Assembly (NCBI GenBank): GCA_002763225.1
Contig: PFAI01000038.1
Coordinates: forward strand, 1-14,487
Source of the DNA: Candidatus Diapherotrites archaeon CG10_big_fil_rev_8_21_14_0_10_31_34
Lineage (GTDB): Archaea; Iainarchaeota; Iainarchaeia; Iainarchaeales; 1-14-0-10-31-34
DNA: 14,487 bases
Direction: 5' to 3'
This document shows positions 1-7,663 of the stretch, one piece after another (within the stretch, counting starts at the first letter, position 1; the number at the start of each line of letters is the position of its first letter). The notes beneath the pieces were generated by a model. The model saw only the letters and a list, made by a program, of their open reading frames with translations. It made no database searches and was not told the DNA's origin. The translations under genes and the position numbers were made by a program.

Positions 1-2510
1 ACTTTTTCTACATTAGTCATAGAAGAAAGAATTTCTTTTGAATTAGAAAAAGAAAGTTTTGTTTCTAAAACTAATTCATTTAATTTCCATCTTAAACGCA
101 TTTTTTCTTTTTCTCTTAAAGACAAAGCAGTCTGGGAAATTTCTTTAACCAAAGAAAACTCTTTTTCTAAATCCAAATCAATCAGTTTTTGATTATGCTT
201 TGGAAAAACAAGTAAGTGAACTGATTCAAGCATTTTTGGTTTTTTAAAATCACTGTAAATGTACTCTGAAAAATGAGGCAAAACAGGAGCCATTAATTTC
301 AGTAAATTAATTAAAACATAATTCATTGTAACTGAAACAGCTTTGTCTTTTCTATTCCTGATTAATTTAATGTAAGTCCTGCTGAATTCTTCTGTTACAA
401 ACCAGTTTAACTGGGAAACAAGCTTTGGATATAAATATTTTTCATATGCTTCAACTGAATCCCTGATTAAAGAATTAAGTTTAGAGACAATCCATTTGTC
501 TTCAGGCATTAATTCCTTTAAATCTTTTTCCTGAATTAAAGGATTTTTTTCTAAATACAAATTTAAGTAATTATAGGAATTAAAAAAGATTCCAAAAAAC
601 TTGTTGATGTCTTTGAATGCATTCCAGTCAAAAACAATGTCTTCTCCTTTTGACTGAGAACAAAAATAATACCTTAAAAAATCCCTGTTATGTTTTTGAA
701 TTACTTCTTTTGGCTGAATTGCATTTCCTTTTGACTTGCTCATCTTTTTTTTGCCTAAATCCAATACCATTCCATGAACCATAATGTTTTTGTAAGGAGT
801 TTTATCAAAACAAATAGTTGAAGTAATTAATTGCGAGTTCCACCAGCCTCGAACTTGCTCTGTTGCCTCAATGTTTAAGTCAGCTGGCCAGAATTTTTTA
901 AATAAATCATCTGATTTAGGGTAATTTAATGCAGCCCAAGAACTTACTCCTGCATCAAACCACACATCCAACACTTCTGAAACCCTTGAAAATTCTCCTC
1001 CACAATCACAAGAAAACTTGACTTTATCTATTTCAGGTTTATGCAAATCAATTGAATCTGAAACCTTTGCTTCTTTTTGTAATTCTTTTAGTGAACCAAA
1101 AACTTTTCTTTTATTACATTTACTGCAAACCCAGATAGGCAGTGGAGTACCCCAATATCTTGCCCTTGAAATAGGCCAGTCAGACAATGATTCAATCCAG
1201 TTATTCATCCTGTCATTCATCCAAGAAGGAATCCAGTTGTTTTCTGAATTTAATTCAAGCATTCTTTTTCTGATTGAACTGACTTTGAAAAACCATTGAG
1301 GAACTGAAAGCATTAACAAAGGAGTTTTACATCTCCAGCAAACAGGATAATCATGTGTGTATGGATGCTTTAAAACCAATGAATTCATTTCCTGTAAATC
1401 ATCAATTATTTCGGAATCAACTTTTCTTGCTTTTTTTCCCTGATATTTTCCTGCCTGTTCAGTCATTTCACCGTTTAATTTTACCGGAGAAAGAGAAGGC
1501 AAATTATTTTCTTTTCCTACTTCAAAGTCTTCTTTTCCATGGCCTGGCGCACAATGCACTAAACCAGTTCCTTCATCTAAATTAACATAACGGGAACTTA
1601 AAACAATTTTATAGCCTTTGCTCATGTCAGGCAAATTCAAATTTTTATTAAGCGGGTTTTCATATTTCCAGTCTTTTAGTTCTTTTCCTTTCCACACTTT
1701 TTTTTCTGTAAAACCTGCTTCAACTGAATCCATTAATTTTTGAACTAGTTCTTTTGCAATAATCCATTTTTCTCCTGAACTTAATTCAATTTCCGAGTAA
1801 TCAAATTCAGGGTTAACCATTACTCCAGTATTTGCAGGCAGAGTCCAAGGAGTAGTAGTCCAGATTATCAGGAAAGTATTTTTTTTGTCTTTTAAAGGAA
1901 ATTTAACATACACAGAATTATCTGTTTGTTTAATGTATTCAATTTCGTTGAATGAAACTGCTGTCTCGCATCTGGGGCAAACATGAACAGAGTATTCTCC
2001 TAAATACAATAATTTTTTTTCTTCTGCTTTTTTAAAAGTCCACCAAATGCTTTCAATGTACTCATTTTTCAGAGTAATATATGGATTCTCCCAGTCCATC
2101 CATACTCCAAGATTTTCAAATTCATTGTTTTGCTGGTCAATAAATTCAGTTGCATATTTCCTGCATTTTTTAATAAAATTTTCTACTCCAAACTTTTCAA
2201 TATCCTGCTTTGATTTAGTGTTAATTTCTTTTTCTACCTGAAATTCAATGGGAGTTCCATGAGTGTCATATCCTGGTCTATCAAAAACATTAAATCCATT
2301 CATTCTTTTATATCTAATTGAAACATCTTTCAAAATCTTGTTTAATGCAGTTCCCATATGAATATGGCCTGTTGCATAAGGAGGGCCGTCCATGAAATAA
2401 AAGCATTTTTTTTGTTTTGAACTTGTTTTTCTGGCTTTTTCCGGAATTTTGTTTTTTGCCCACTGCTTTCTGATTTCTTCTTCTTTTTGCAGAGAATAAT
2501 TTTCTAACAT
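1..2510 (-). CDS. ileS: Isoleucyl-tRNA synthetase (archaeal type); 3' end runs off the left edge of the window
   Basis: Absent from the ORF track because it has no stop in the window; translated by hand from ATG at 2510: MLENYSLQKEEEIRKQW...FYFMDGPPYATGHIHMGTALNKILKD (HIGH-type motif)...PGYDTHGTPIE...IWTTTPWTLPAN...GTGLVHCAPGHG (editing domain)...DWPISRARYWGTPLPIW...LDVWFDAG...QVRGWW...KKMSKSKGN (KMSKS). Confidence 0.97.
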   Translation of the reverse strand, partial: MLENYSLQKEEEIRKQWAKNKIPEKARKTSSKQKKCFYFMDGPPYATGHIHMGTALNKILKDVSIRYKRMNGFNVFDRPGYDTHGTPIEFQVEKEINTKSKQDIEKFGVENFIKKCRKYATEFIDQQNNEFENLGVWMDWENPYITLKNEYIESIWWTFKKAEEKKLLYLGEYSVHVCPRCETAVSFNEIEYIKQTDNSVYVKFPLKDKKNTFLIIWTTTPWTLPANTGVMVNPEFDYSEIELSSGEKWIIAKELVQKLMDSVEAGFTEKKVWKGKELKDWKYENPLNKNLNLPDMSKGYKIVLSSRYVNLDEGTGLVHCAPGHGKEDFEVGKENNLPSLSPVKLNGEMTEQAGKYQGKKARKVDSEIIDDLQEMNSLVLKHPYTHDYPVCWRCKTPLLMLSVPQWFFKVSSIRKRMLELNSENNWIPSWMNDRMNNWIESLSDWPISRARYWGTPLPIWVCSKCNKRKVFGSLKELQKEAKVSDSIDLHKPEIDKVKFSCDCGGEFSRVSEVLDVWFDAGVSSWAALNYPKSDDLFKKFWPADLNIEATEQVRGWWNSQLITSTICFDKTPYKNIMVHGMVLDLGKKKMSKSKGNAIQPKEVIQKHNRDFLRYYFCSQSKGEDIVFDWNAFKDINKFFGIFFNSYNYLNLYLEKNPLIQEKDLKELMPEDKWIVSKLNSLIRDSVEAYEKYLYPKLVSQLNWFVTEEFSRTYIKLIRNRKDKAVSVTMNYVLINLLKLMAPVLPHFSEYIYSDFKKPKMLESVHLLVFPKHNQKLIDLDLEKEFSLVKEISQTALSLREKEKMRLRWKLNELVLETKLSFSNSKEILSSMTNVEK

Positions 2511-2520
2511 TTTATCCCTT

Positions 2521-2548
2521 TTTTGATAAAACTTTTTCTAAAAGTTTT
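2521..2548. repeat. Short palindromic repeat, single-hairpin copy A
   Basis: ttttgat + aaaactttt-tct-aaaagtttt; ends 10 nt from the ileS start codon. Confidence 0.8.
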
Positions 2549-2549
2549 T

Positions 2550-2599
2550 GCAGTACGACTGAAAGTCGTACGTTTTGTTGAACCTTTTGGAAAAGGTTT
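2550..2599. repeat. Palindromic repeat, double-hairpin copy 1
   Basis: gca-gtacgact-gaa-agtcgtac, g, ttttgtt, g-aacctttt-gg-aaaaggtt-t; abuts the tRNA 3' end. Confidence 0.85.
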
Positions 2600-2600
2600 A

Positions 2601-2675
2601 TGGGCGTGGGAGGATTTGAACCCCCGACTCCTGGTGTATAAGACCAGTGCTCTAACCAGGCTGAGCTACACGCCC
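2601..2675 (-). tRNA. tRNA-Ile(UAU), intronless, CCA not encoded
   Basis: 75-nt cloverleaf: acceptor GGGCGTG/CACGCCC plus discriminator A; D arm GCTC-AGCCTGGTTA-GAGC; anticodon arm CTGGT-CT TAT AC-ACCAG (anticodon at 2640-2638); variable loop GAGTC; T arm GGGGG-TTCAAAT-CCTCC. Confidence 0.96.
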
Positions 2676-2762
2676 ATCGCGATTCCGCTCGCGAGCAACG
2701 GCGCACGACATTCATTGCATTCAGTCGTGCTGTCTGAGAAATAAAATAAAACCAATAAAATC

Positions 2763-2770
2763 CTTAAATA
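2763..2770 (-). promoter_or_regulatory. Putative TATA box for the tRNA-Ile (and possibly ileS) transcript
   Basis: Minus strand reads TATTTAAG, about 25-30 nt before the start of the GC-rich tRNA leader. Weak evidence in AT-rich DNA. Confidence 0.45.
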
Positions 2771-2799
2771 CTTATCCAAACCAAAACTTGTTTTTAAAG

Positions 2800-3483
2800 T
2801 TATGCGGAACCAGTTTTTGATACAACTTTTTCCAAAAGTTGTTCTTTGTGTTCAATTGAATGCATTATTAAATCTGCGGCAGTCTTCATCAACAGGAAAA
2901 GAACCAAAACAGAAGAAGTTGCTGCTGAAGCTCCTGACAAATCAATGACAAACCCCTGCACTAAAACAATAATGATTATGTGCATTGGGATTATTCTTAT
3001 ATAAGGAAAAAACATCAGGCTGCCTGCAGTATATTTTTTTGGGGAATCCTTAAACTTAATATAAGAAAAAAGATGGTTTAAGAAAAAAATTATTGCAACC
3101 AAAAAGACGTAACCAAAATCAACTGCAACTGAATTTCCTCCGAATAAAGGGAAAACAAAAGTGATTGAAACCAAAAAAACAAGGTAAACCAAGTGAAAAA
3201 TTCCATAATGGAAAACAAAAAAGAAACCCAAAAAGATTTTACCTAAAGAAGTTATCTGGTTTAATTGTTCTCCCAGAATCAAACGATTTTCTAAAGTAAT
3301 AATCCTAATAAAATTAAAGAATCCAATAATAACACTCTGGAACCAATAAATCCAGACAATAACAAAAACACTCCAGCTGAAAACAACTGCTAAAACAATT
3401 GTAATCAAGTTTGAAAGAATTAATACTTTAGCTGAAGAATCGTTTTGAACTGATTCAATTAAACCCTGAAAAGAAAAAGTCAT
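2800..3483 (-). CDS. Polytopic membrane protein, DUF6498-like
   Basis: 227 aa with about 6 hydrophobic segments; motifs LILSNLITIVLAVVFSW, IYWFQSVIIGFFN, FFFVFHYGIFHLVY, PYIRIIPMHIIII and KTAADL resemble that family from memory. Confidence 0.75.
   Translation of the reverse strand: MTFSFQGLIESVQNDSSAKVLILSNLITIVLAVVFSWSVFVIVWIYWFQSVIIGFFNFIRIITLENRLILGEQLNQITSLGKIFLGFFFVFHYGIFHLVYLVFLVSITFVFPLFGGNSVAVDFGYVFLVAIIFFLNHLFSYIKFKDSPKKYTAGSLMFFPYIRIIPMHIIIIVLVQGFVIDLSGASAATSSVLVLFLLMKTAADLIMHSIEHKEQLLEKVVSKTGSA
2815..2842. repeat. Short palindromic repeat, single-hairpin copy B (inside the 3' end of the CDS)
   Basis: ttttgat + acaactttt-tcc-aaaagttgt; encodes QLLEKVVSK on the minus strand. Confidence 0.8.
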
Positions 3484-3601
3484 AATAAATTAAAGTTATA
3501 GAAGAATAAAAGTGTTTCTATAGAAAAATAGAAAAATAAAAGAAAAAGAGAATAAAACTGGTTTATTCTTTGGTTTCTTTTTTTAAAAAATTGGTTTTAG
3601 C

Positions 3602-4135
3602 TTATTCGTCTGAAGAATCGTCTGAGTCATCGCTGTCTGAATTGCTTTCAGAATCTGAGTCACTTGAATCAGAATCAGAGTCATCTGAAGCTGGTTTTGA
3701 TTCGCTTTTAGGGCTTCTGTCAAAACTTCTTCTGTTTCCGCCGCCACCAAATCTGCCTCTGTTTCCGCCGCCAAATCTGCCTCTTTGTTCAAATTCTTTT
3801 TCTGAAACATTGTTTTCTTTGTTTACTTCGGCAACTTCTTCTTTTGAATCAGTTAATTCGCCGTATCTTCCAATATTCAGTCTTAAACAGTTTTTGAATA
3901 AAGAAGTATATGCGTTTGCAATTTTATAGGTTTTTTCTAGTTCAACTCTGTCAATCATATCATCCCATAAAGTCAATAAAATGATTCCTGATTCATCTCC
4001 TACTAATGCTTCAGTTACTTTATGATTAGAGTTGTCTAGTTTTGAAGTAACTTCTCTTACTTCATTTTTTTCTAATACTTTTACTGCTAATTCAACCTTT
4101 TTTTGAAAAGGTCTTAGTTCACTTATTTTATCCAT
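3602..4135 (-). CDS. ssb: Single-stranded DNA-binding protein (single OB fold, SSB/RPA family) with RG-rich linker and Ser/Asp-rich acidic tail
   Basis: MDKISELRP...VKVLEK..VREV...KVTEALVGDESGIILLTLWD...KIANAYTSLFKNCLRLNIGRYG is a typical archaeal OB fold. Start moved to ATG 4135 because of GGAGG SD at 4146-4142. 177 aa. Confidence 0.9.
   Translation of the reverse strand: MDKISELRPFQKKVELAVKVLEKNEVREVTSKLDNSNHKVTEALVGDESGIILLTLWDDMIDRVELEKTYKIANAYTSLFKNCLRLNIGRYGELTDSKEEVAEVNKENNVSEKEFEQRGRFGGGNRGRFGGGGNRRSFDRSPKSESKPASDDSDSDSSDSDSESNSDSDDSDDSSDE
3728..3784 (-). repeat. Imperfect coding tandem repeat in the SSB tail (RGRFGGGN x2)
   Basis: Plus strand tctgtttccgccgcca(cca)aatctgcc occurs twice. 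Confidence 0.8.
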
Positions 4136-4234
4136 GTTAATCCTCCGGTTAAACAACGAATTTAAAATCCTAAAAAAAATAGGGTAAAATTCGTTTAGTT
4201 AATATTAAAATCTTAGATAAACTCTTTAAAAAGA

Positions 4235-4242
4235 TATTTAAA
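4235..4242 (-). promoter_or_regulatory. Putative TATA box of ssb
   Basis: TTTAAATA on the minus strand about 100 nt upstream of the ATG, implying a leader of about 70 nt. Confidence 0.5.
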
Positions 4243-4271
4243 GCTAAATGCAGGTAAAAAAAAGAGAAAAA

Positions 4272-4321
4272 GAAGTATGGGTTTATCCCATACATTTTGT
4301 TACACCTTTTAAAAAAGGTGT
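4272..4321. repeat. Palindromic repeat, double-hairpin copy 2
   Basis: gaa-gtatggg-tttat-cccatac, a, ttttgtt, acacctttt-aa-aaaaggtgt; begins 2 nt after the TAG of the 4324-5007 gene and is followed by a U-rich tract on the minus strand. Confidence 0.85.
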
Positions 4322-4323
4322 TT

Positions 4324-5007
4324 CTATAGTCCTTTTCTAACTTCCATTACAAAGTTTTTGATGTCTTTTCTGAATGATAATCCAAAAGCAACTCCAAAAA
4401 TTATTGCAATTACTATTACTAAGACTGTAAAAGCAATTCTAAATGCTTCAACTAAAATAGTTGTATCAAAGCCAATATAGGATAAAGCCATTACCACTAC
4501 TAAATACATTACAACTATTTCTGCAATTAATGCCAGCATTGCTTTTTTTGGATAATTTGTTTTGTTTATTGTGTTTCTGATGTATCTGGCTAAATAAAAG
4601 CCTACAGCCAATAACAGCACTGCACTCAAAATTAATGGTACTTCAAAGACCAGCATTCCAATAAAGTCTGATAAAACATCTAATGCAAGCCAGTTAACTG
4701 CCTGAGCCAAAAACAATATTACAACATACCATTTAACTAATTCTCCAATTAAAATAGAAAAAGGTACTCCTCCAATTGCCTGAGGCAATTCATGAGACTC
4801 CAAGAAATGATCAACTTTAAGATATTGAATTATATAAACAACTGCTTTTTTCAACAGCAATGCAACAACATAACCAATTATTAATAACACAATTGCAATC
4901 GCTATTCCTGGAAGCACTTCAATAGATTTATTATACAAAGCTGCAATTGAATCAGCAACTCCTTTACCTAAAATGCCTGCAAAATCTAATGCTCCTTCAC
5001 CAATCAT
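4324..5007 (-). CDS. Conserved TM-helix repeat membrane protein (MscS-associated / CmpX-like)
   Basis: Two repeats of the pattern LPGIAIAIVLLIIGYVVA / VPLILSAVLLLAVGFYLA and a C-terminal AIIFGVAFGLSFRK; SD GGGTGATT upstream. Confidence 0.8.
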   Translation of the reverse strand: MIGEGALDFAGILGKGVADSIAALYNKSIEVLPGIAIAIVLLIIGYVVALLLKKAVVYIIQYLKVDHFLESHELPQAIGGVPFSILIGELVKWYVVILFLAQAVNWLALDVLSDFIGMLVFEVPLILSAVLLLAVGFYLARYIRNTINKTNYPKKAMLALIAEIVVMYLVVVMALSYIGFDTTILVEAFRIAFTVLVIVIAIIFGVAFGLSFRKDIKNFVMEVRKGL

Positions 5008-5055
5008 AATTTAATCACCCTAAAAAATTGTTTAATTGTAAATAATTCTGCTTTT

Positions 5056-5613
5056 CTATTTAAAAAGGTTACCCATTAAATCCCTTGTTTTCTCAAATAA
5101 ATCGTTTAAAGAGCCGTTATTATCTATTTTAAATTCAGCTAACAAAAAAACATTTTTCATCCCCTTTTTTTCTTCATCAAGTTTATCTCTGAAAGAAAAC
5201 TCTTCTAGTTCATCAGGATCCAATTCACTTCTTCTTTCAAACCTTTCATTTTCTTCTGCTTTAATTAAAACAAGTTTTGCTTCAGAAAACCTTTGCTTAA
5301 TTAATTCAATTTCTTCAGTTGACCTTGCTCCAACAAAAACAATTTTTTCTTCTTCTTTTTTGTTCAAACTTTTTTCAAAAGTTTGTTTTTCCAAAAGCTT
5401 TTGTGCTATTACTCCCATTCCAAACTCTTTTCTTAATTCATCTCCAAGCAAAGCCATGCTTTTCTTTGAAACTTCTTTTCCCTGTTTTATTAGTTCTTCT
5501 TCCAAAACAGAAGAAAAAACAAATTTTTTGAATCCAAATTCTTTCACTAAAAAGTCTGCTACCGTATCTTTTCCTGAACGGGCTTTTCCAAGCAAAATCA
5601 AAACTTGTTTCAT
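5056..5613 (-). CDS. P-loop nucleoside monophosphate / dephospho-CoA kinase-like protein (archaeal UPF0200-like)
   Basis: Walker A GKARSGKDT directly after MKQVLILL; LRKEFG, GARS, ERFERR, IDNNGSL. Start set at ATG 5613; the longer ORF-track N-terminus is read-through of repeat copy 3. Confidence 0.8.
   Translation of the reverse strand: MKQVLILLGKARSGKDTVADFLVKEFGFKKFVFSSVLEEELIKQGKEVSKKSMALLGDELRKEFGMGVIAQKLLEKQTFEKSLNKKEEEKIVFVGARSTEEIELIKQRFSEAKLVLIKAEENERFERRSELDPDELEEFSFRDKLDEEKKGMKNVFLLAEFKIDNNGSLNDLFEKTRDLMGNLFK
5358..5385. repeat. Short palindromic repeat, single-hairpin copy C (in frame inside the kinase CDS)
   Basis: ttttgtt + caaactttt-ttc-aaaagtttg; encodes QTFEKSLNK. Confidence 0.75.
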
Positions 5614-5643
5614 AGAAAGAAAAATGAAAGGAAAAAAGTAAAA

Positions 5644-5694
5644 GCAGTATGGGTTTACCCAATACATTTAGTTAAACCTTTTAACAAAAGGTTT
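5644..5694. repeat. Palindromic repeat, double-hairpin copy 3
   Basis: gca-gtatggg-ttta-ccc(a)atac, a, tttagtt, aaacctttt-aac-aaaaggttt; lies in a divergent intergenic region. Confidence 0.85.
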
Positions 5695-5746
5695 AAATAA
5701 AAACAAACGCATTATATTTTCATTATTTTTATGGAAGTGATTTGAA

Positions 5747-5962
5747 ATGGCCTTGATTAAAAAAACAAAACAAGAAAAGACTAAAAAAGAAAAAAAGAAC
5801 AAACCTATGCTAACACGGAAAGAAATAACAGTTAAAGTGATTAAAGAAATGAAACAAAACAAACCATGGGCCAAAGAGTATTCTGAAACAGGCATGCAGG
5901 ATAATTATGGAAAAGAAATTACTGCTGAAGTTAATAGAAAACTAATTAAACAGAAAAAATAA
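5747..5962 (+). CDS. Small Lys-rich hypothetical protein (71 aa)
   Basis: A-rich coding-strand bias like the other genes, SD-like AAGTGAT upstream of the ATG, TTATAT about 35 nt upstream; no recognisable family. Confidence 0.55.
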   Translation: MALIKKTKQEKTKKEKKNKPMLTRKEITVKVIKEMKQNKPWAKEYSETGMQDNYGKEITAEVNRKLIKQKK

Positions 5963-5968
5963 AAAAAA

Positions 5969-6018
5969 GCAGTACGGGCTTGTCCCGTACTTTTGGTTAA
6001 ACCCTTTGAAAAGGGTTT
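5969..6018. repeat. Palindromic repeat, double-hairpin copy 4
   Basis: gca-gtacggg-cttgt-cccgtac, ttttggtt, aaacccttt-ga-aaagggttt; overlaps the thermosome stop codon and is followed by U8 on the minus strand. Confidence 0.85.
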
Positions 6019-7663
6019 ACATCATGCCTGGCATTCCGCCCATACCACCCATGTCTGGAGACATTTGAGCTGAACCTTTGCTTGAACCTGCAACAATGTC
6101 ATCGATTCTTAAAATCATTTCAGTTACTTCTGCTGCAGAAGTAATTGCCTGTGTTTTGACATTTAATGGTTCAATTACATTAGAGTTTTTTAAGTCAACT
6201 AACTGTGCTTTAAAGACATCAACTCCAATGTATTTTCCTTCTGGTTTAGCATGTTTTGATCTCAAACTAACTAGTGTGTCAATTGGATCCATTCCAGCTG
6301 TTTCAGCTAAAGTTCTAGGAATTATTTCAAGTGTTTCGGCAAATGCATCAATTGCAAGTTGTTCTCTTCCGCCAATTGTTTTAGCGTATTCTCTTAATTT
6401 GACTGCAACTTCAATTTCACTGCTTCCTCCGCCTGCAACAACTTTTCCTATTTTAATTGCTGAAATAACTGCTCCTAATGCGTCATTTAAGGCTCTTTCT
6501 GCTTCGTCCATTATGTGTTCTGAACCGCCTCTGACTAAAATTGTTACTGCTTTAGGGTTTTTGCATCCTTCAACAAATACCATGTCTTCGTTAGCTACTT
6601 TTCTTGAAGAAACTAATTCTGCGTTTCCTAAGTCTTTTGAAGAAATATCTGAAACTCTTGTAACAACTTTTGCTCCGGTTGATTTTGCAAGCAATCCCAT
6701 GTCAGATTTTTTTACTCTTCTGACTGCAACAATTCCTTCTTTTGCTAAAAAGTGTTGTGCCATGTCATCAATTCCTTTCTGGCAGAAAACAACAGTTGCA
6801 CCGGATTTTTTTATTGCATCAACCATATCTTTTAACATTTTTTCTTCTTGGTCTAAGAAAGCCTGTAATTGATCTGGGGAAGTAATCTGAATTTTTGCAT
6901 CTGTTTCAGTTTCTTTTATTTCCAAAGCTGAATCAACTAAAGCAATTTTTGCATTCTTCATTTTTCTTGGCATTCCTTCATGAACTATTTCTTTGTCAAT
7001 TACTACTCCTTTAATTAATTCTGAATCAGTTAATCCTGCCCCACCTTTTTTTTCTATTTTAATTTTGTCTCTTTCAACAGTTATTTTATCGTTTTCTTCT
7101 TCTGCAACTGTTTTGATTCCTTCAACAACTAAATCAGCTAATTCTGTTGCAGCTTCAGCTGCTTTTCCTGTCATTGAAGTAACAGCAATGTTCTTCAAAG
7201 TTTTAACATCTTTGATTGTAACTGGATCAGCTATTTCTGTGTAAAATTCTTTTGCTTTTTTTGCTGCCATTCTATAACCATTAATTATAATTGAAGAATG
7301 GATTTCATCATCAAGCATTCTTTCTGCTTTTCCAAGTAATCCGCCTGCTAAAACTACGACTGTTGTTGTTCCGTCTCCGACTTCATTATCCTGAGTTTTA
7401 GCTATTTCTACTAACATTTTTCCTATTGGATGGTCAATACTCATTTCACTTAAAATTGTTGCTCCATCATTTGAGATTGTAACGTCTCCTAAATCATCTA
7501 CAATCATTTTATCCATTCCTTTAGGCCCTAAAGTAGATTTAACTGCATTTGCAACTGCTTTTGCAATTAAAATATTAATTCTTTGTGCGTCTCTTCCTTT
7601 GGTTCTTTTTGAGCCATCAGAAAGAAAAACAACTTGCTGGTTCATATTATCTGTTTGTGCCAT
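6017..7663 (-). CDS. thsA: Thermosome subunit (group II chaperonin)
   Basis: 548 aa; [53 protein letters not shown]-terminal [11 protein letters not shown]. The alpha/beta assignment cannot be made from sequence alone. Confidence 0.97.

Follow-up and report, generated by a model that had tools for sequence, protein, structure and literature searches.

Palindromic double-hairpin repeats at gene, tRNA and intron edges in a genus of Iainarchaeota

Four copies in the window and the repeat family

The first 14,487 bases of contig C44 (PFAI01000038.1) in the draft genome of Candidatus Diapherotrites archaeon CG10_big_fil_rev_8_21_14_0_10_31_34 (G000 below), a stretch referred to here as the window, contain four copies of a structured double-hairpin module of about 50–55 nt. 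The draft comprises 1.045 Mb in 65 contigs, at 31% G+C and 81% completeness. Genes were called with a simple, crude open reading frame (ORF) caller, supplemented by the tRNAs of ARAGORN and Infernal. Around positions 2400–6200 the genes are on the minus strand, except for a doubtful small ORF at 5747–5962 (plus strand). They encode a class I aminoacyl-tRNA synthetase (aaRS), a tRNA-Ile, a DUF6498 protein, a protein with a mechanosensitive (MS)-channel transmembrane (TM) helix, a P-loop kinase-like protein and a thermosome subunit.

Read in gene sense, i.e. on the minus strand of the window, the module consists of an AT-rich hairpin, hp2 (AAACCYTTT-nn-AAARGGTTT), a linker AACMAAAN, a GC-rich hairpin, hp1, and a tail TGCAA or TGCTT. 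The hp1 stem has 7 bp, a 5-nt loop and the foot GYRC…GYRC. An earlier note on this DNA had described four bipartite copies distinguished by a second, GC-rich hairpin. Reading of the sequence from 2400 to 6200 found all four in place, and each folds into two hairpins (minus-strand RNA, −14.8 to −22.8 kcal/mol; z −3.31 to −5.39), with none of 200 shuffles folding as well. The copies and the tracts behind them are as follows.

2548–2599, minus strand: copy 1, a family-A bipartite module (covariance model, 71.1 bits); hp2 ~2580–2599, linker 2572–2579, hp1 2553–2571, tail TGCAA 2548–2552
4271–4323, minus strand: copy 2 (covariance model, 71 bits); hp2 4302–4321, linker 4294–4301, hp1 4275–4293
4252–4274, minus strand: T-rich tract CTTCTTTTTCTCTTTTTTTTACC (gene sense) behind copy 2, an ancestral flank outside the module
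5643–5694, minus strand: copy 3, degenerate (covariance model, 62.3 bits); hp2 5674–5694, linker 5666–5673, hp1 5647–5665 with one bulged base
5967–6019, minus strand: copy 4 (covariance model, 73.7 bits); hp2 5999–6018, linker 5991–5998, hp1 5972–5990, tail TGC 5969–5971
5953–5968, minus strand: T8-A-T6 tract behind copy 4, an ancestral flank, which the congener G005 has behind a different, simple hairpin

Three of the copies adjoin gene ends, as the earlier note had it. Copy 1 begins 1–2 nt past tRNA-Ile(UAU) (2600–2676 by ARAGORN, 2601–2675 by Infernal) and has no T tract behind it; copy 2 begins 2 nt past the TAG of the TM-helix ORF (4324–5007); and hp2 of copy 4 overlaps by 2 nt the TAA (6017–6019) of the thermosome ORF (6017–7663). 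Copy 3 is at no confirmed gene 3′ end and has the P-loop kinase-like ORF (5056–5613) behind it, with the ATG (5613) 30 nt downstream. Two small ORF calls overlap in its neighborhood, one of 71 lysine-rich amino acids (5747–5962, plus strand) and one of 75 amino acids (5668–5895, minus strand), and it is impossible that both are real; the latter would continue across hp2 of copy 3 and end within the linker of that copy.

A hidden Markov model (HMM) built on 16 copies matched G000 31 times at E<0.01, while a covariance model built on 24 copies gave 33 matches at E≤0.01 and 27 at E<1e-4. The comparison set included five congeners (G001–G005), three further genera belonging to the same family and, from the rest of the order, 32 genomes outside that family. 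All five congeners were matched by the covariance model (12, 4, 22, 37 and 2 matches at E≤0.001), and no match was found in the three other genera or in the 32 genomes of other families. Rfam, suggested in the earlier note as a place to look, offers no counterpart: scanning the window with Rfam 15 returned no family at or above its gathering score at the modules, where the sub-threshold matches are chance ones (aspC motif, 29.1 bits against a cut-off of 100; L20 leader, 23.9 against 58.7). Scans that covered the window and three other loci returned no family at the modules other than tRNA and RNase P RNA.

The compensatory stem swaps pointed out in the earlier note were borne out by the 24-copy alignment, in which five of the seven hp1 pairs change on both sides and 95.8% of the cells are paired. 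The hp1 covariation score of 0.327 compares with 0.158 in shuffles, was reached by none of 500 shuffles and is abolished by sliding the 3′ partners. Watson-Crick pairs occupy 159 of 168 hp1 cells in G000 and 297 of 301 in the sister genomes. On the transcribed strand G·U is no commoner than A·C (hp1: 2 v 4 in G000 and 0 v 1 in the sister genomes; hp2: 10 v 8 and 10 v 10). More than 30 stem/loop variants of hp1 were found, nearly all fully paired and several common to different species. As an account of such near-perfect stems, repair or copying inside a DNA palindrome does no worse than selection acting on an RNA helix. The hp1 stems with an inner GAC carry the loop TTTCA or TTTCG, and all other stems have A-rich loops (RYAAR); the GAC hairpin looks as if it were a flipped copy of the hp1 cap.

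Each half of the module was also searched for separately, with reversed sequence as a control. Hairpins of hp2 type with an A-rich tail were found 119 times (4 in the control), many of them alone or in tandem, mostly in spacers and in a few cases inside ORF calls. These single units exceed the double form by about 4 to 1 and form tandem arrays of their own. Hairpins with a GYRC foot followed by TG were found 56 times (13 in the control). According to a reading of their flanks, approximately 44 of the 56 follow an hp2-type hairpin, which is either AT-rich or belongs to one of several GC-rich families, and the linker between the two usually contains AAC. The foot occurs as the G-Y-R-C variants GTAC, GCAC, GTGC and GTCC, with TG(C) behind the 3′ arm. 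Since hp1 caps GC-rich hp2 families as well and singles outnumber doubles, the bipartite form combines two types of unit as a mosaic; the alternative offered in the earlier note, that single hairpins are truncated forms of a full-length element, fits poorly with these observations. Tandem units mostly share one orientation (window 2520–2599; C64 17583–17720; the 39–40-nt arrays of G004), and inverted pairs of units are seen at intron ends. The G004 arrays with a 39–40-nt period (G004:C14:22322-22497, G004:C93:6433-6591 and G004:C134:3713-3851) repeat a sequence that consists of one half of an hp2 together with the linker, hp1 and TGCC.

Placement at the edges of genes, tRNAs and introns

A bias of position and orientation relative to gene 3′ ends, which the earlier note had proposed from the window, is strong across the genome. 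Eleven of the 27 covariance model matches begin −6 to +3 nt from a same-strand gene 3′ end (six tRNAs and five ORFs), a location shared by 4.2% of random non-coding positions (binomial P=4.6e-9), so that the lack of bias by which the proposal would fall was not observed. With the 31 HMM matches, 15 adjoin same-strand 3′ ends (seven tRNAs and eight ORFs). The adjoined ORFs encode, by Pfam match, an FtsZ C-terminal domain, an MscS-type channel, ribose-5-phosphate isomerase, ribosomal protein S6e, the thermosome and the MS-channel TM-helix protein; two more have no Pfam match, and no functional theme is common to the set.

The rule is wider than 3′ ends. Three copies form the first bases of tRNA introns, directly behind the anticodon loop, in tRNA-Trp(CCA) and in the paralogous tRNA-Arg(CCT) and tRNA-Arg(UCU); ARAGORN mis-calls the first of these as Thr and the last as Tyr. 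Two further copies adjoin the 5′ ends of tRNA-Val and tRNA-Leu in reversed orientation. Of the 31 HMM matches, 20 have their hp2 end at the edge of a gene, a tRNA or an exon, and three have their hp1 end no more than 5 nt from a called feature of any kind. It is hp2 that faces the edge of the mature RNA or ORF, on whichever side of it the module stands.

In the sister genomes 41 copies were cut out with their flanks, of which two (L101 and L102) have identical flanks and are possibly one locus. Contexts were assigned with ARAGORN or with a test for ORFs of at least 50 codons, and otherwise by reading of the flanks:

10 copies: adjoin a tRNA 3′ end (ARAGORN)
2 more copies: adjoin a tRNA 3′ end (reading of T-arm and acceptor sequence)
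5 copies: adjoin a tRNA 5′ end, reversed (ARAGORN)
6 copies: adjoin the stop of an ORF of at least 50 codons (ORF test)
about 5 copies: at an intron edge (reading of flanks)
remainder of the 41: no called feature at the edge

In G001:C41 and G004:C84 modules also begin where Infernal ends its match to RNase P RNA. Genes for this RNA in the genus either run directly into modules or have a hairpin unit as their end (G001:C41:8672-8998, G004:C84:231-677 and G000:C47:1688-2071). The Infernal match is 384 nt long in G000 and 294 nt in G005, and the greater length in G000 suggests repeat insertions within the RNA gene or at its end.

The intron of tRNA-Arg(CCT) occupies the same site in all six species, is ~90–180 nt long and has a hairpin unit adjoining each exon. 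G000 has the family-A double module at the 5′ end of this intron, and G005 has it at the 3′ end in reversed orientation. The tRNA-Arg(CCT) and (UCU) introns of 129–140 nt (G000:C16:27969-28178 and C47:13525-13735; orthologues L047–L051) are bounded by inverted hp2-type units with potential pairing over ~30 bp. For the tRNA-Arg introns no canonical bulge-helix-bulge (BHB) fold, in which a 4-bp helix with a 3-nt bulge on either side marks where the tRNA-splicing endonuclease cuts, could be drawn, nor can one be drawn for the copies at stop codons. In the tRNA-Trp intron, by our reading, a downstream GGTTTG is able to pair with the module's first 6 nt to give a BHB-like fold with one mismatch in the central helix. 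The call at this locus (G000:C13:13020-13159, minus strand) is a tRNA-Thr(cgt) with a 47-nt intron; with an anticodon loop CU-CCA-GA, it is more likely a tRNA-Trp with an intron of ~66 nt. The same tRNA-Trp carries a second module on its 3′ end.

One further module, at G000:C37:4500-4604 (L110 1200–1305), lies behind a conserved segment of ~45 nt (…GGGAGGTGGGATT). Rfam gave no match to this segment, which may be a micro-ORF of 16 codons that continues into hp2. This module and its flanks are conserved in three species (also L074 in G003 and L085 in G004).

Turnover, probable origin and rival explanations

In the earlier note the module had been interpreted as a dedicated terminator, exosome barrier or processing module. 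This is not supported by the wider set, in which the T tract lies outside the element, copies occur in introns and tight spacers, and copies stand reversed at tRNA 5′ ends. The U tract that had been seen behind three copies is present behind copies 2, 3 and 4 and absent behind copy 1, and it does not extend to the genome: a T run of at least five stands behind hp1 in 6 of the 27 copies and one of at least four in 9, the usual sequence there being TGCAAT or TGCAAA. In G004 the TAG of the TM-helix gene is followed directly by CTTCCTTTTTCTTTC… with no module, and in G000 a 48-nt module sits exactly between the TAG and CTTCTTTTTCTC…, with a downstream promoter-like region that aligns in both. Because the G004 stop codon runs directly into the same T-rich tract, the tract is older than the module. 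The thermosome tract TTTTTTTTATTTTT is likewise found behind the module in G000 and behind a different simple hairpin in G005, and tRNAs without a module end directly in T5–8 runs.

Termination would be harmful at intron starts and in co-directional spacers, several of which are tight: 37 nt are left between the tRNA-Ile module and the class I aaRS gene and are filled by another hairpin unit, and the distances to the next ORF are 1 nt behind tRNA-Leu and 11 nt behind ribosomal protein S6e. On the opposite strand the linker always gives a T-rich run behind hp1, which explains the terminator-like calls that a consensus scan makes there for copies 1, 2 and 4; this strand, however, reads into the gene ends. 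In our reading the module is not in itself a terminator or processing signal.

Comparison of the six species indicates what occupies individual edges. The thermosome 3′ end carries a different hairpin module or family in each species, that of G005 being only a GC hairpin with T8. The TM-gene 3′ end has a module in five of the six and is empty in G004, and the filled and empty sites (TAG, module, CTTC) show no target duplication. At tRNA-Ile the 3′ edge is filled in all six species by varied families, including a tandem array with a 40-nt period in G004; its 5′ edge carries three different families in G000, G002 and G004, and is empty, with a plain short leader, in G001, G003 and G005.

We consider it probable that the double hairpin is a mosaic form of genus-specific, mobile and edge-placed small palindromic DNA repeats, akin to repetitive extragenic palindromes (REPs) and bacterial interspersed mosaic elements (BIMEs) of bacteria, and is not a terminator. 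An AT-rich unit, hp2 with its A-rich tail, which also occurs alone or in tandem about 100 times, is joined to a GC-rich cap, namely hp1 with the G-Y-R-C foot and TGCAA tail, which also caps several GC-rich hp2 families. Addition and exchange of copies take place at the DNA level, and copies persist in narrow, transcribed but dispensable strips beside the edge of a mature RNA or ORF, always with hp2 towards the gene. Such strips lie directly behind stop codons, directly behind the tRNA discriminator base, at either end of tRNA introns and, for reversed copies, directly before tRNA position +1. Downstream of a gene a copy would be transcribed into the 3′ untranslated region (UTR) or trailer, placing a stem-loop before the gene's older oligo-T terminator, and the probable effect would be stabilization of the 3′ end or, at sites with a T tract, an aid to termination. 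A copy within an intron, a leader or an operon spacer would be a tolerated passenger that is removed or read through.

Several points weigh against this reading. The exact abutment to edges, independently repeated at the same sites, exceeds what neutral tolerance would give, and a selected function at RNA ends could lie behind it; more than 30 compensated stems are also expected from selection on an RNA helix; and the stabilizing effect on RNA is one that we infer. A single clean pair of filled and empty sites was examined, in which the G004 state could be a deletion, and the gene calls rest on a crude ORF caller. Contigs of four other groundwater samples covering 2400–6200 contain the modules with 0–1 differences and yielded no allele without a module; these contigs break at the repeat inside ORF 5056–5613 and are uninformative on mobility. 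Searches for the Y1 transposase (PF01797), the TnpB zinc-ribbon domain and reverse transcriptase found no mobilizing enzyme for the genus, the DDE families not having been searched. Y1 was found in one of the six genomes (G004) and not in G000 (81% complete), G001, G002, G003 or G005; the zinc-ribbon domain was found in none of the six; and reverse transcriptase was found in G002 alone. G004 has the highest copy number of the repeat and is the sole genome of the genus with Y1 transposase genes. Of its four PF01797 matches, the one examined resembles an IS200-type gene with end hairpins of its own; a link to the modules was rejected, as these hairpins share only the loop TTTCA with hp1, which we judged a coincidence.

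The exactness of placement may have a sober account, namely that the transcribed, dispensable strips are only 0–10 nt long, so that copies which persist appear to abut edges. In G000 stop codons and discriminator bases run at once into oligo-T, and the tRNA-Ile leader is ~10 nt as estimated from its TATA-like box. This account does not cover the fixed polarity or the repeated matches at position −1 and at both splice junctions, and a targeted mechanism is for this reason retained as a candidate. It is tentatively conceivable, though not the likelier outcome, that modules are placed by a transposase-independent mechanism that reads mature-RNA edges and always joins hp2 to them. The edges read in this way would be stop codons, splice junctions, the 3′ end of RNase P RNA and, in tRNAs, position −1 and the discriminator base, and the mechanism could be transcription-coupled, templated by processed RNA ends, or a structure-guided recombination at folded single-stranded DNA.

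Some of the same observations could be claimed for a function of the RNA. According to one such explanation, which we regard as rather unlikely, the module is a selected 3′-end element, a hairpin-assisted terminator or a barrier to 3′-to-5′ decay, recruited wherever a stable 3′ end is needed. The same-strand bias (11/27 against the 4.2% null) speaks for it, as do the hairpin modules that every congener keeps between the thermosome stop codon and the T tract and that five of six species keep behind the TM-helix gene, the terminator-like combination of hp1 with a flanking T run on the gene strand at copies 2 and 4, the 8 terminator-like sites of the region against 1.9 expected, and stems that stay perfectly paired across more than 30 variants. 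Against it, a T run of at least five stands behind only 6 of 27 copies, three copies start tRNA introns and others are reversed in 5′ leaders, copies 1–37 nt upstream of co-directional genes leave no room for a promoter, the transcribed strand has no excess of G·U, and the element is limited to one genus with an 18-fold variation in copy number among congeners. Processing punctuation, in which hp2 would mark the exact place of an endonuclease cut and so define splice sites, both ends of tRNAs and the 3′ ends of mRNAs within the long polycistronic transcripts of a promoter-poor genome, is unlikely. Sense and reversed copies give complementary, and hence different, RNAs that one RNA-recognizing enzyme would not see alike, and RNase P RNA, found in all six genomes, means that tRNA 5′ ends need no new enzyme. 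The empty tRNA-Ile 5′ edge in three of the six species further indicates that the hairpin is dispensable for maturation, and the tRNA-Arg introns lack a drawable canonical BHB. What this explanation would capture is the position of the hp2 foot, 0–2 nt from the discriminator, from tRNA position −1, from positions 37/38 of three intron-bearing tRNAs and from the end of the RNase P RNA match, together with the BHB-like fold of the tRNA-Trp intron that uses the first 6 nt of the module and GGTTTG.

Two further explanations are less probable still. A promoter cassette would use the hp2 3′ arm and linker (GGTTTAACAAAA) as a TATA-like box, hp1 as a spacer and TGCAA as the start site or, in the reverse reading, would terminate with hp1 and TTTTGTT and promote with TTGTTAAAC; taking both directions together we hold it to be very improbable. 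It was largely rejected, as GC-rich families have the same architecture and positions without any AT-rich box and TTTAAC/GTTTAAC has no positional peak upstream of ORFs. The promoter box of tRNA-Ile in G000 lies upstream of the reversed module, which puts the module in the leader, and many copies point into convergent genes or introns. These observations outweighed the TTTAAC found ~30 nt ahead of the TGCAA tail, the promoter-like boxes reading (G)CTTTAAA(A) upstream of module-free tRNAs, two copies located 1 and 11 nt ahead of a start codon, and reversed copies in which TTTGATAAAA falls, by our own count, roughly at −31 to −22 relative to tRNA position +1. It is also highly improbable that the palindromes are binding sites for a dimeric nucleoid, topology or replication protein with no role in RNA. 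Near-perfect Watson-Crick palindromes without strand asymmetry, and a G-Y-R-C foot and TG(C) tail conserved across otherwise unrelated stems, would suit such a protein. However, stem sequences vary freely among more than 30 variants, which suits structure better than sequence-specific binding, and placement tracks transcript edges to the nucleotide, as a site of chromosomal architecture need not. A pairing of leader with trailer was also considered and rejected, since the two flanks of a tRNA usually carry different families that are unable to pair.

The repeats of our preferred reading have their closest known counterparts in bacterial REPs, BIME mosaics and REP doublets forming hairpins (REPINs), which are mobilized by REP-associated tyrosine transposases (RAYTs) of the Y1/HUH type. 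Both groups are short extragenic palindromes in tens to hundreds of copies (here 27 double modules and 119 tailed hp2 units), link several unit types into mosaics, place many copies directly behind stop codons, are lineage-specific with rapid turnover, and carry a conserved short tag at the hairpin foot. They differ in that the host here is a DPANN archaeon, that no RAYT or Y1 gene was found in G000 or in four of the five congeners, that the stems are essentially perfect, that array units mostly run in one direction, with inverted pairs at intron ends, where those of REPs and BIMEs alternate, and that placement is nucleotide-exact at tRNA 5′ and 3′ ends and at both intron ends with the same end facing the gene. 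The tag differs too, being G-Y-R-C with TG(C) and not the GTAG or CGTC at the 5′ foot of REPs (PMC3733652). For archaea, the RepRanger report (PMC12306157) mentions REP-like palindromes in Euryarchaeota and Crenarchaeota in general terms, and our literature search found no description of hairpin repeats at tRNA or gene edges in DPANN or Iainarchaeota.

Archaeal RNA polymerase is described as needing only oligo-T, and no hairpin, to terminate. The modules resemble intrinsic terminators in the GC-rich stem followed by a T run on the gene strand at copies 2 and 4, and in the same arrangement provided by the linker on the opposite strand at copies 1, 2 and 4, but the gene-strand T run is an older flank that is missing from 21 of 27 copies. 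They share with transposable elements of the miniature inverted-repeat type (MITEs) their small size, non-coding nature and multiple copies, and the inverted hp2-type units that bound the tRNA-Arg intron in G000 resemble terminal inverted repeats (TIRs). In contrast to MITEs, the one pair of filled and empty sites shows no target-site duplication, a search for a parent insertion sequence found none (DDE families not searched), and most copies are single-ended modules, with TIR-like ends occurring only around intron fillings.

The introns have a parallel in the Thermoproteales, where related introns common to different tRNA genes have been described as "tRNA intron transposition" (Fujishima et al. 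2010, as summarized in the review PMC4090602), by a mechanism that the summary gives as unknown and thought to act at the DNA level. Here, too, near-identical sequences are found in the introns of different tRNAs (tRNA-Trp and two tRNA-Arg). There, however, whole introns are concerned, whereas here it is a dispersed repeat, as common in trailers, leaders and 3′ UTRs and found only at the edges of pre-existing introns that occupy the same site in all six species. For Asgard archaea, a 2026 preprint on their tRNA introns (10.64898/2026.10.13.758758) continues to describe the arrival of introns as unexplained.

If modules are indeed placed by a mechanism that reads RNA edges, they would provide the material with which DPANN archaea extend and exchange their tRNA introns, leaders and trailers, and would be a concrete, testable donor for the arrival and expansion of archaeal tRNA introns. 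Dispersed palindromic repeats are well studied in bacteria, where they have been tied to a known transposase and to mRNA stability, and hardly at all in archaea. One small, easily recognized module marks every kind of RNA edge in a 1-Mb genome, both ends of tRNA introns included, with nucleotide exactness and fixed polarity; should this aiming be real, and not a by-product of short dispensable strips, it would point to a new mechanism of insertion or gene conversion. As mimics of intrinsic terminators and small RNA genes, the modules will also mislead the annotation of DPANN genomes.

Other hairpin units in the window

The window contains further units of the same kind around tRNA-Ile and within ORF calls:

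2520–2549, minus strand: single hp2-type unit, hairpin with ATCAAAAA tail, in tandem behind copy 1
2600–2676, minus strand: tRNA-Ile (anticodon UAU), with outward-facing modules on both flanks
2677–2736, plus strand: GC-rich bipartite module of another family, adjoining the tRNA-Ile 5′ end in reversed orientation with hp2 next to the tRNA; hp2 TCGCGA-ttccgc-TCGCGA 2677–2694, linker GCAACGGC, hp1 2703–2730, tail TG
2814–2843, minus strand: single hp2-type unit inside the last codons of ORF 2800–3483 (DUF6498)
5357–5386, minus strand: single hp2-type unit inside the P-loop kinase-like ORF 5056–5613

A tRNA-Ile with the anticodon UAU is uncommon in archaea. This one lies 89 nt upstream of the class I aaRS gene (ORF 3–2510, minus strand, ATG at 2510), and the whole spacer consists of hairpin units, the unit at 2520–2549 filling what copy 1 leaves of it. 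The order of tRNA, units and aaRS gene is retained in at least G002 and G003.

Hairpin units inside ORF calls are also found elsewhere in G000, as at G000:C17:3785-3843 within an ORF of 682 codons, and such units may be in-frame insertions into proteins. In four metagenomes the contig depth at 5321–5447 is 20–30 times that of its neighbors, a jump that is expected at the 5357–5386 unit because the unit is a repeat.

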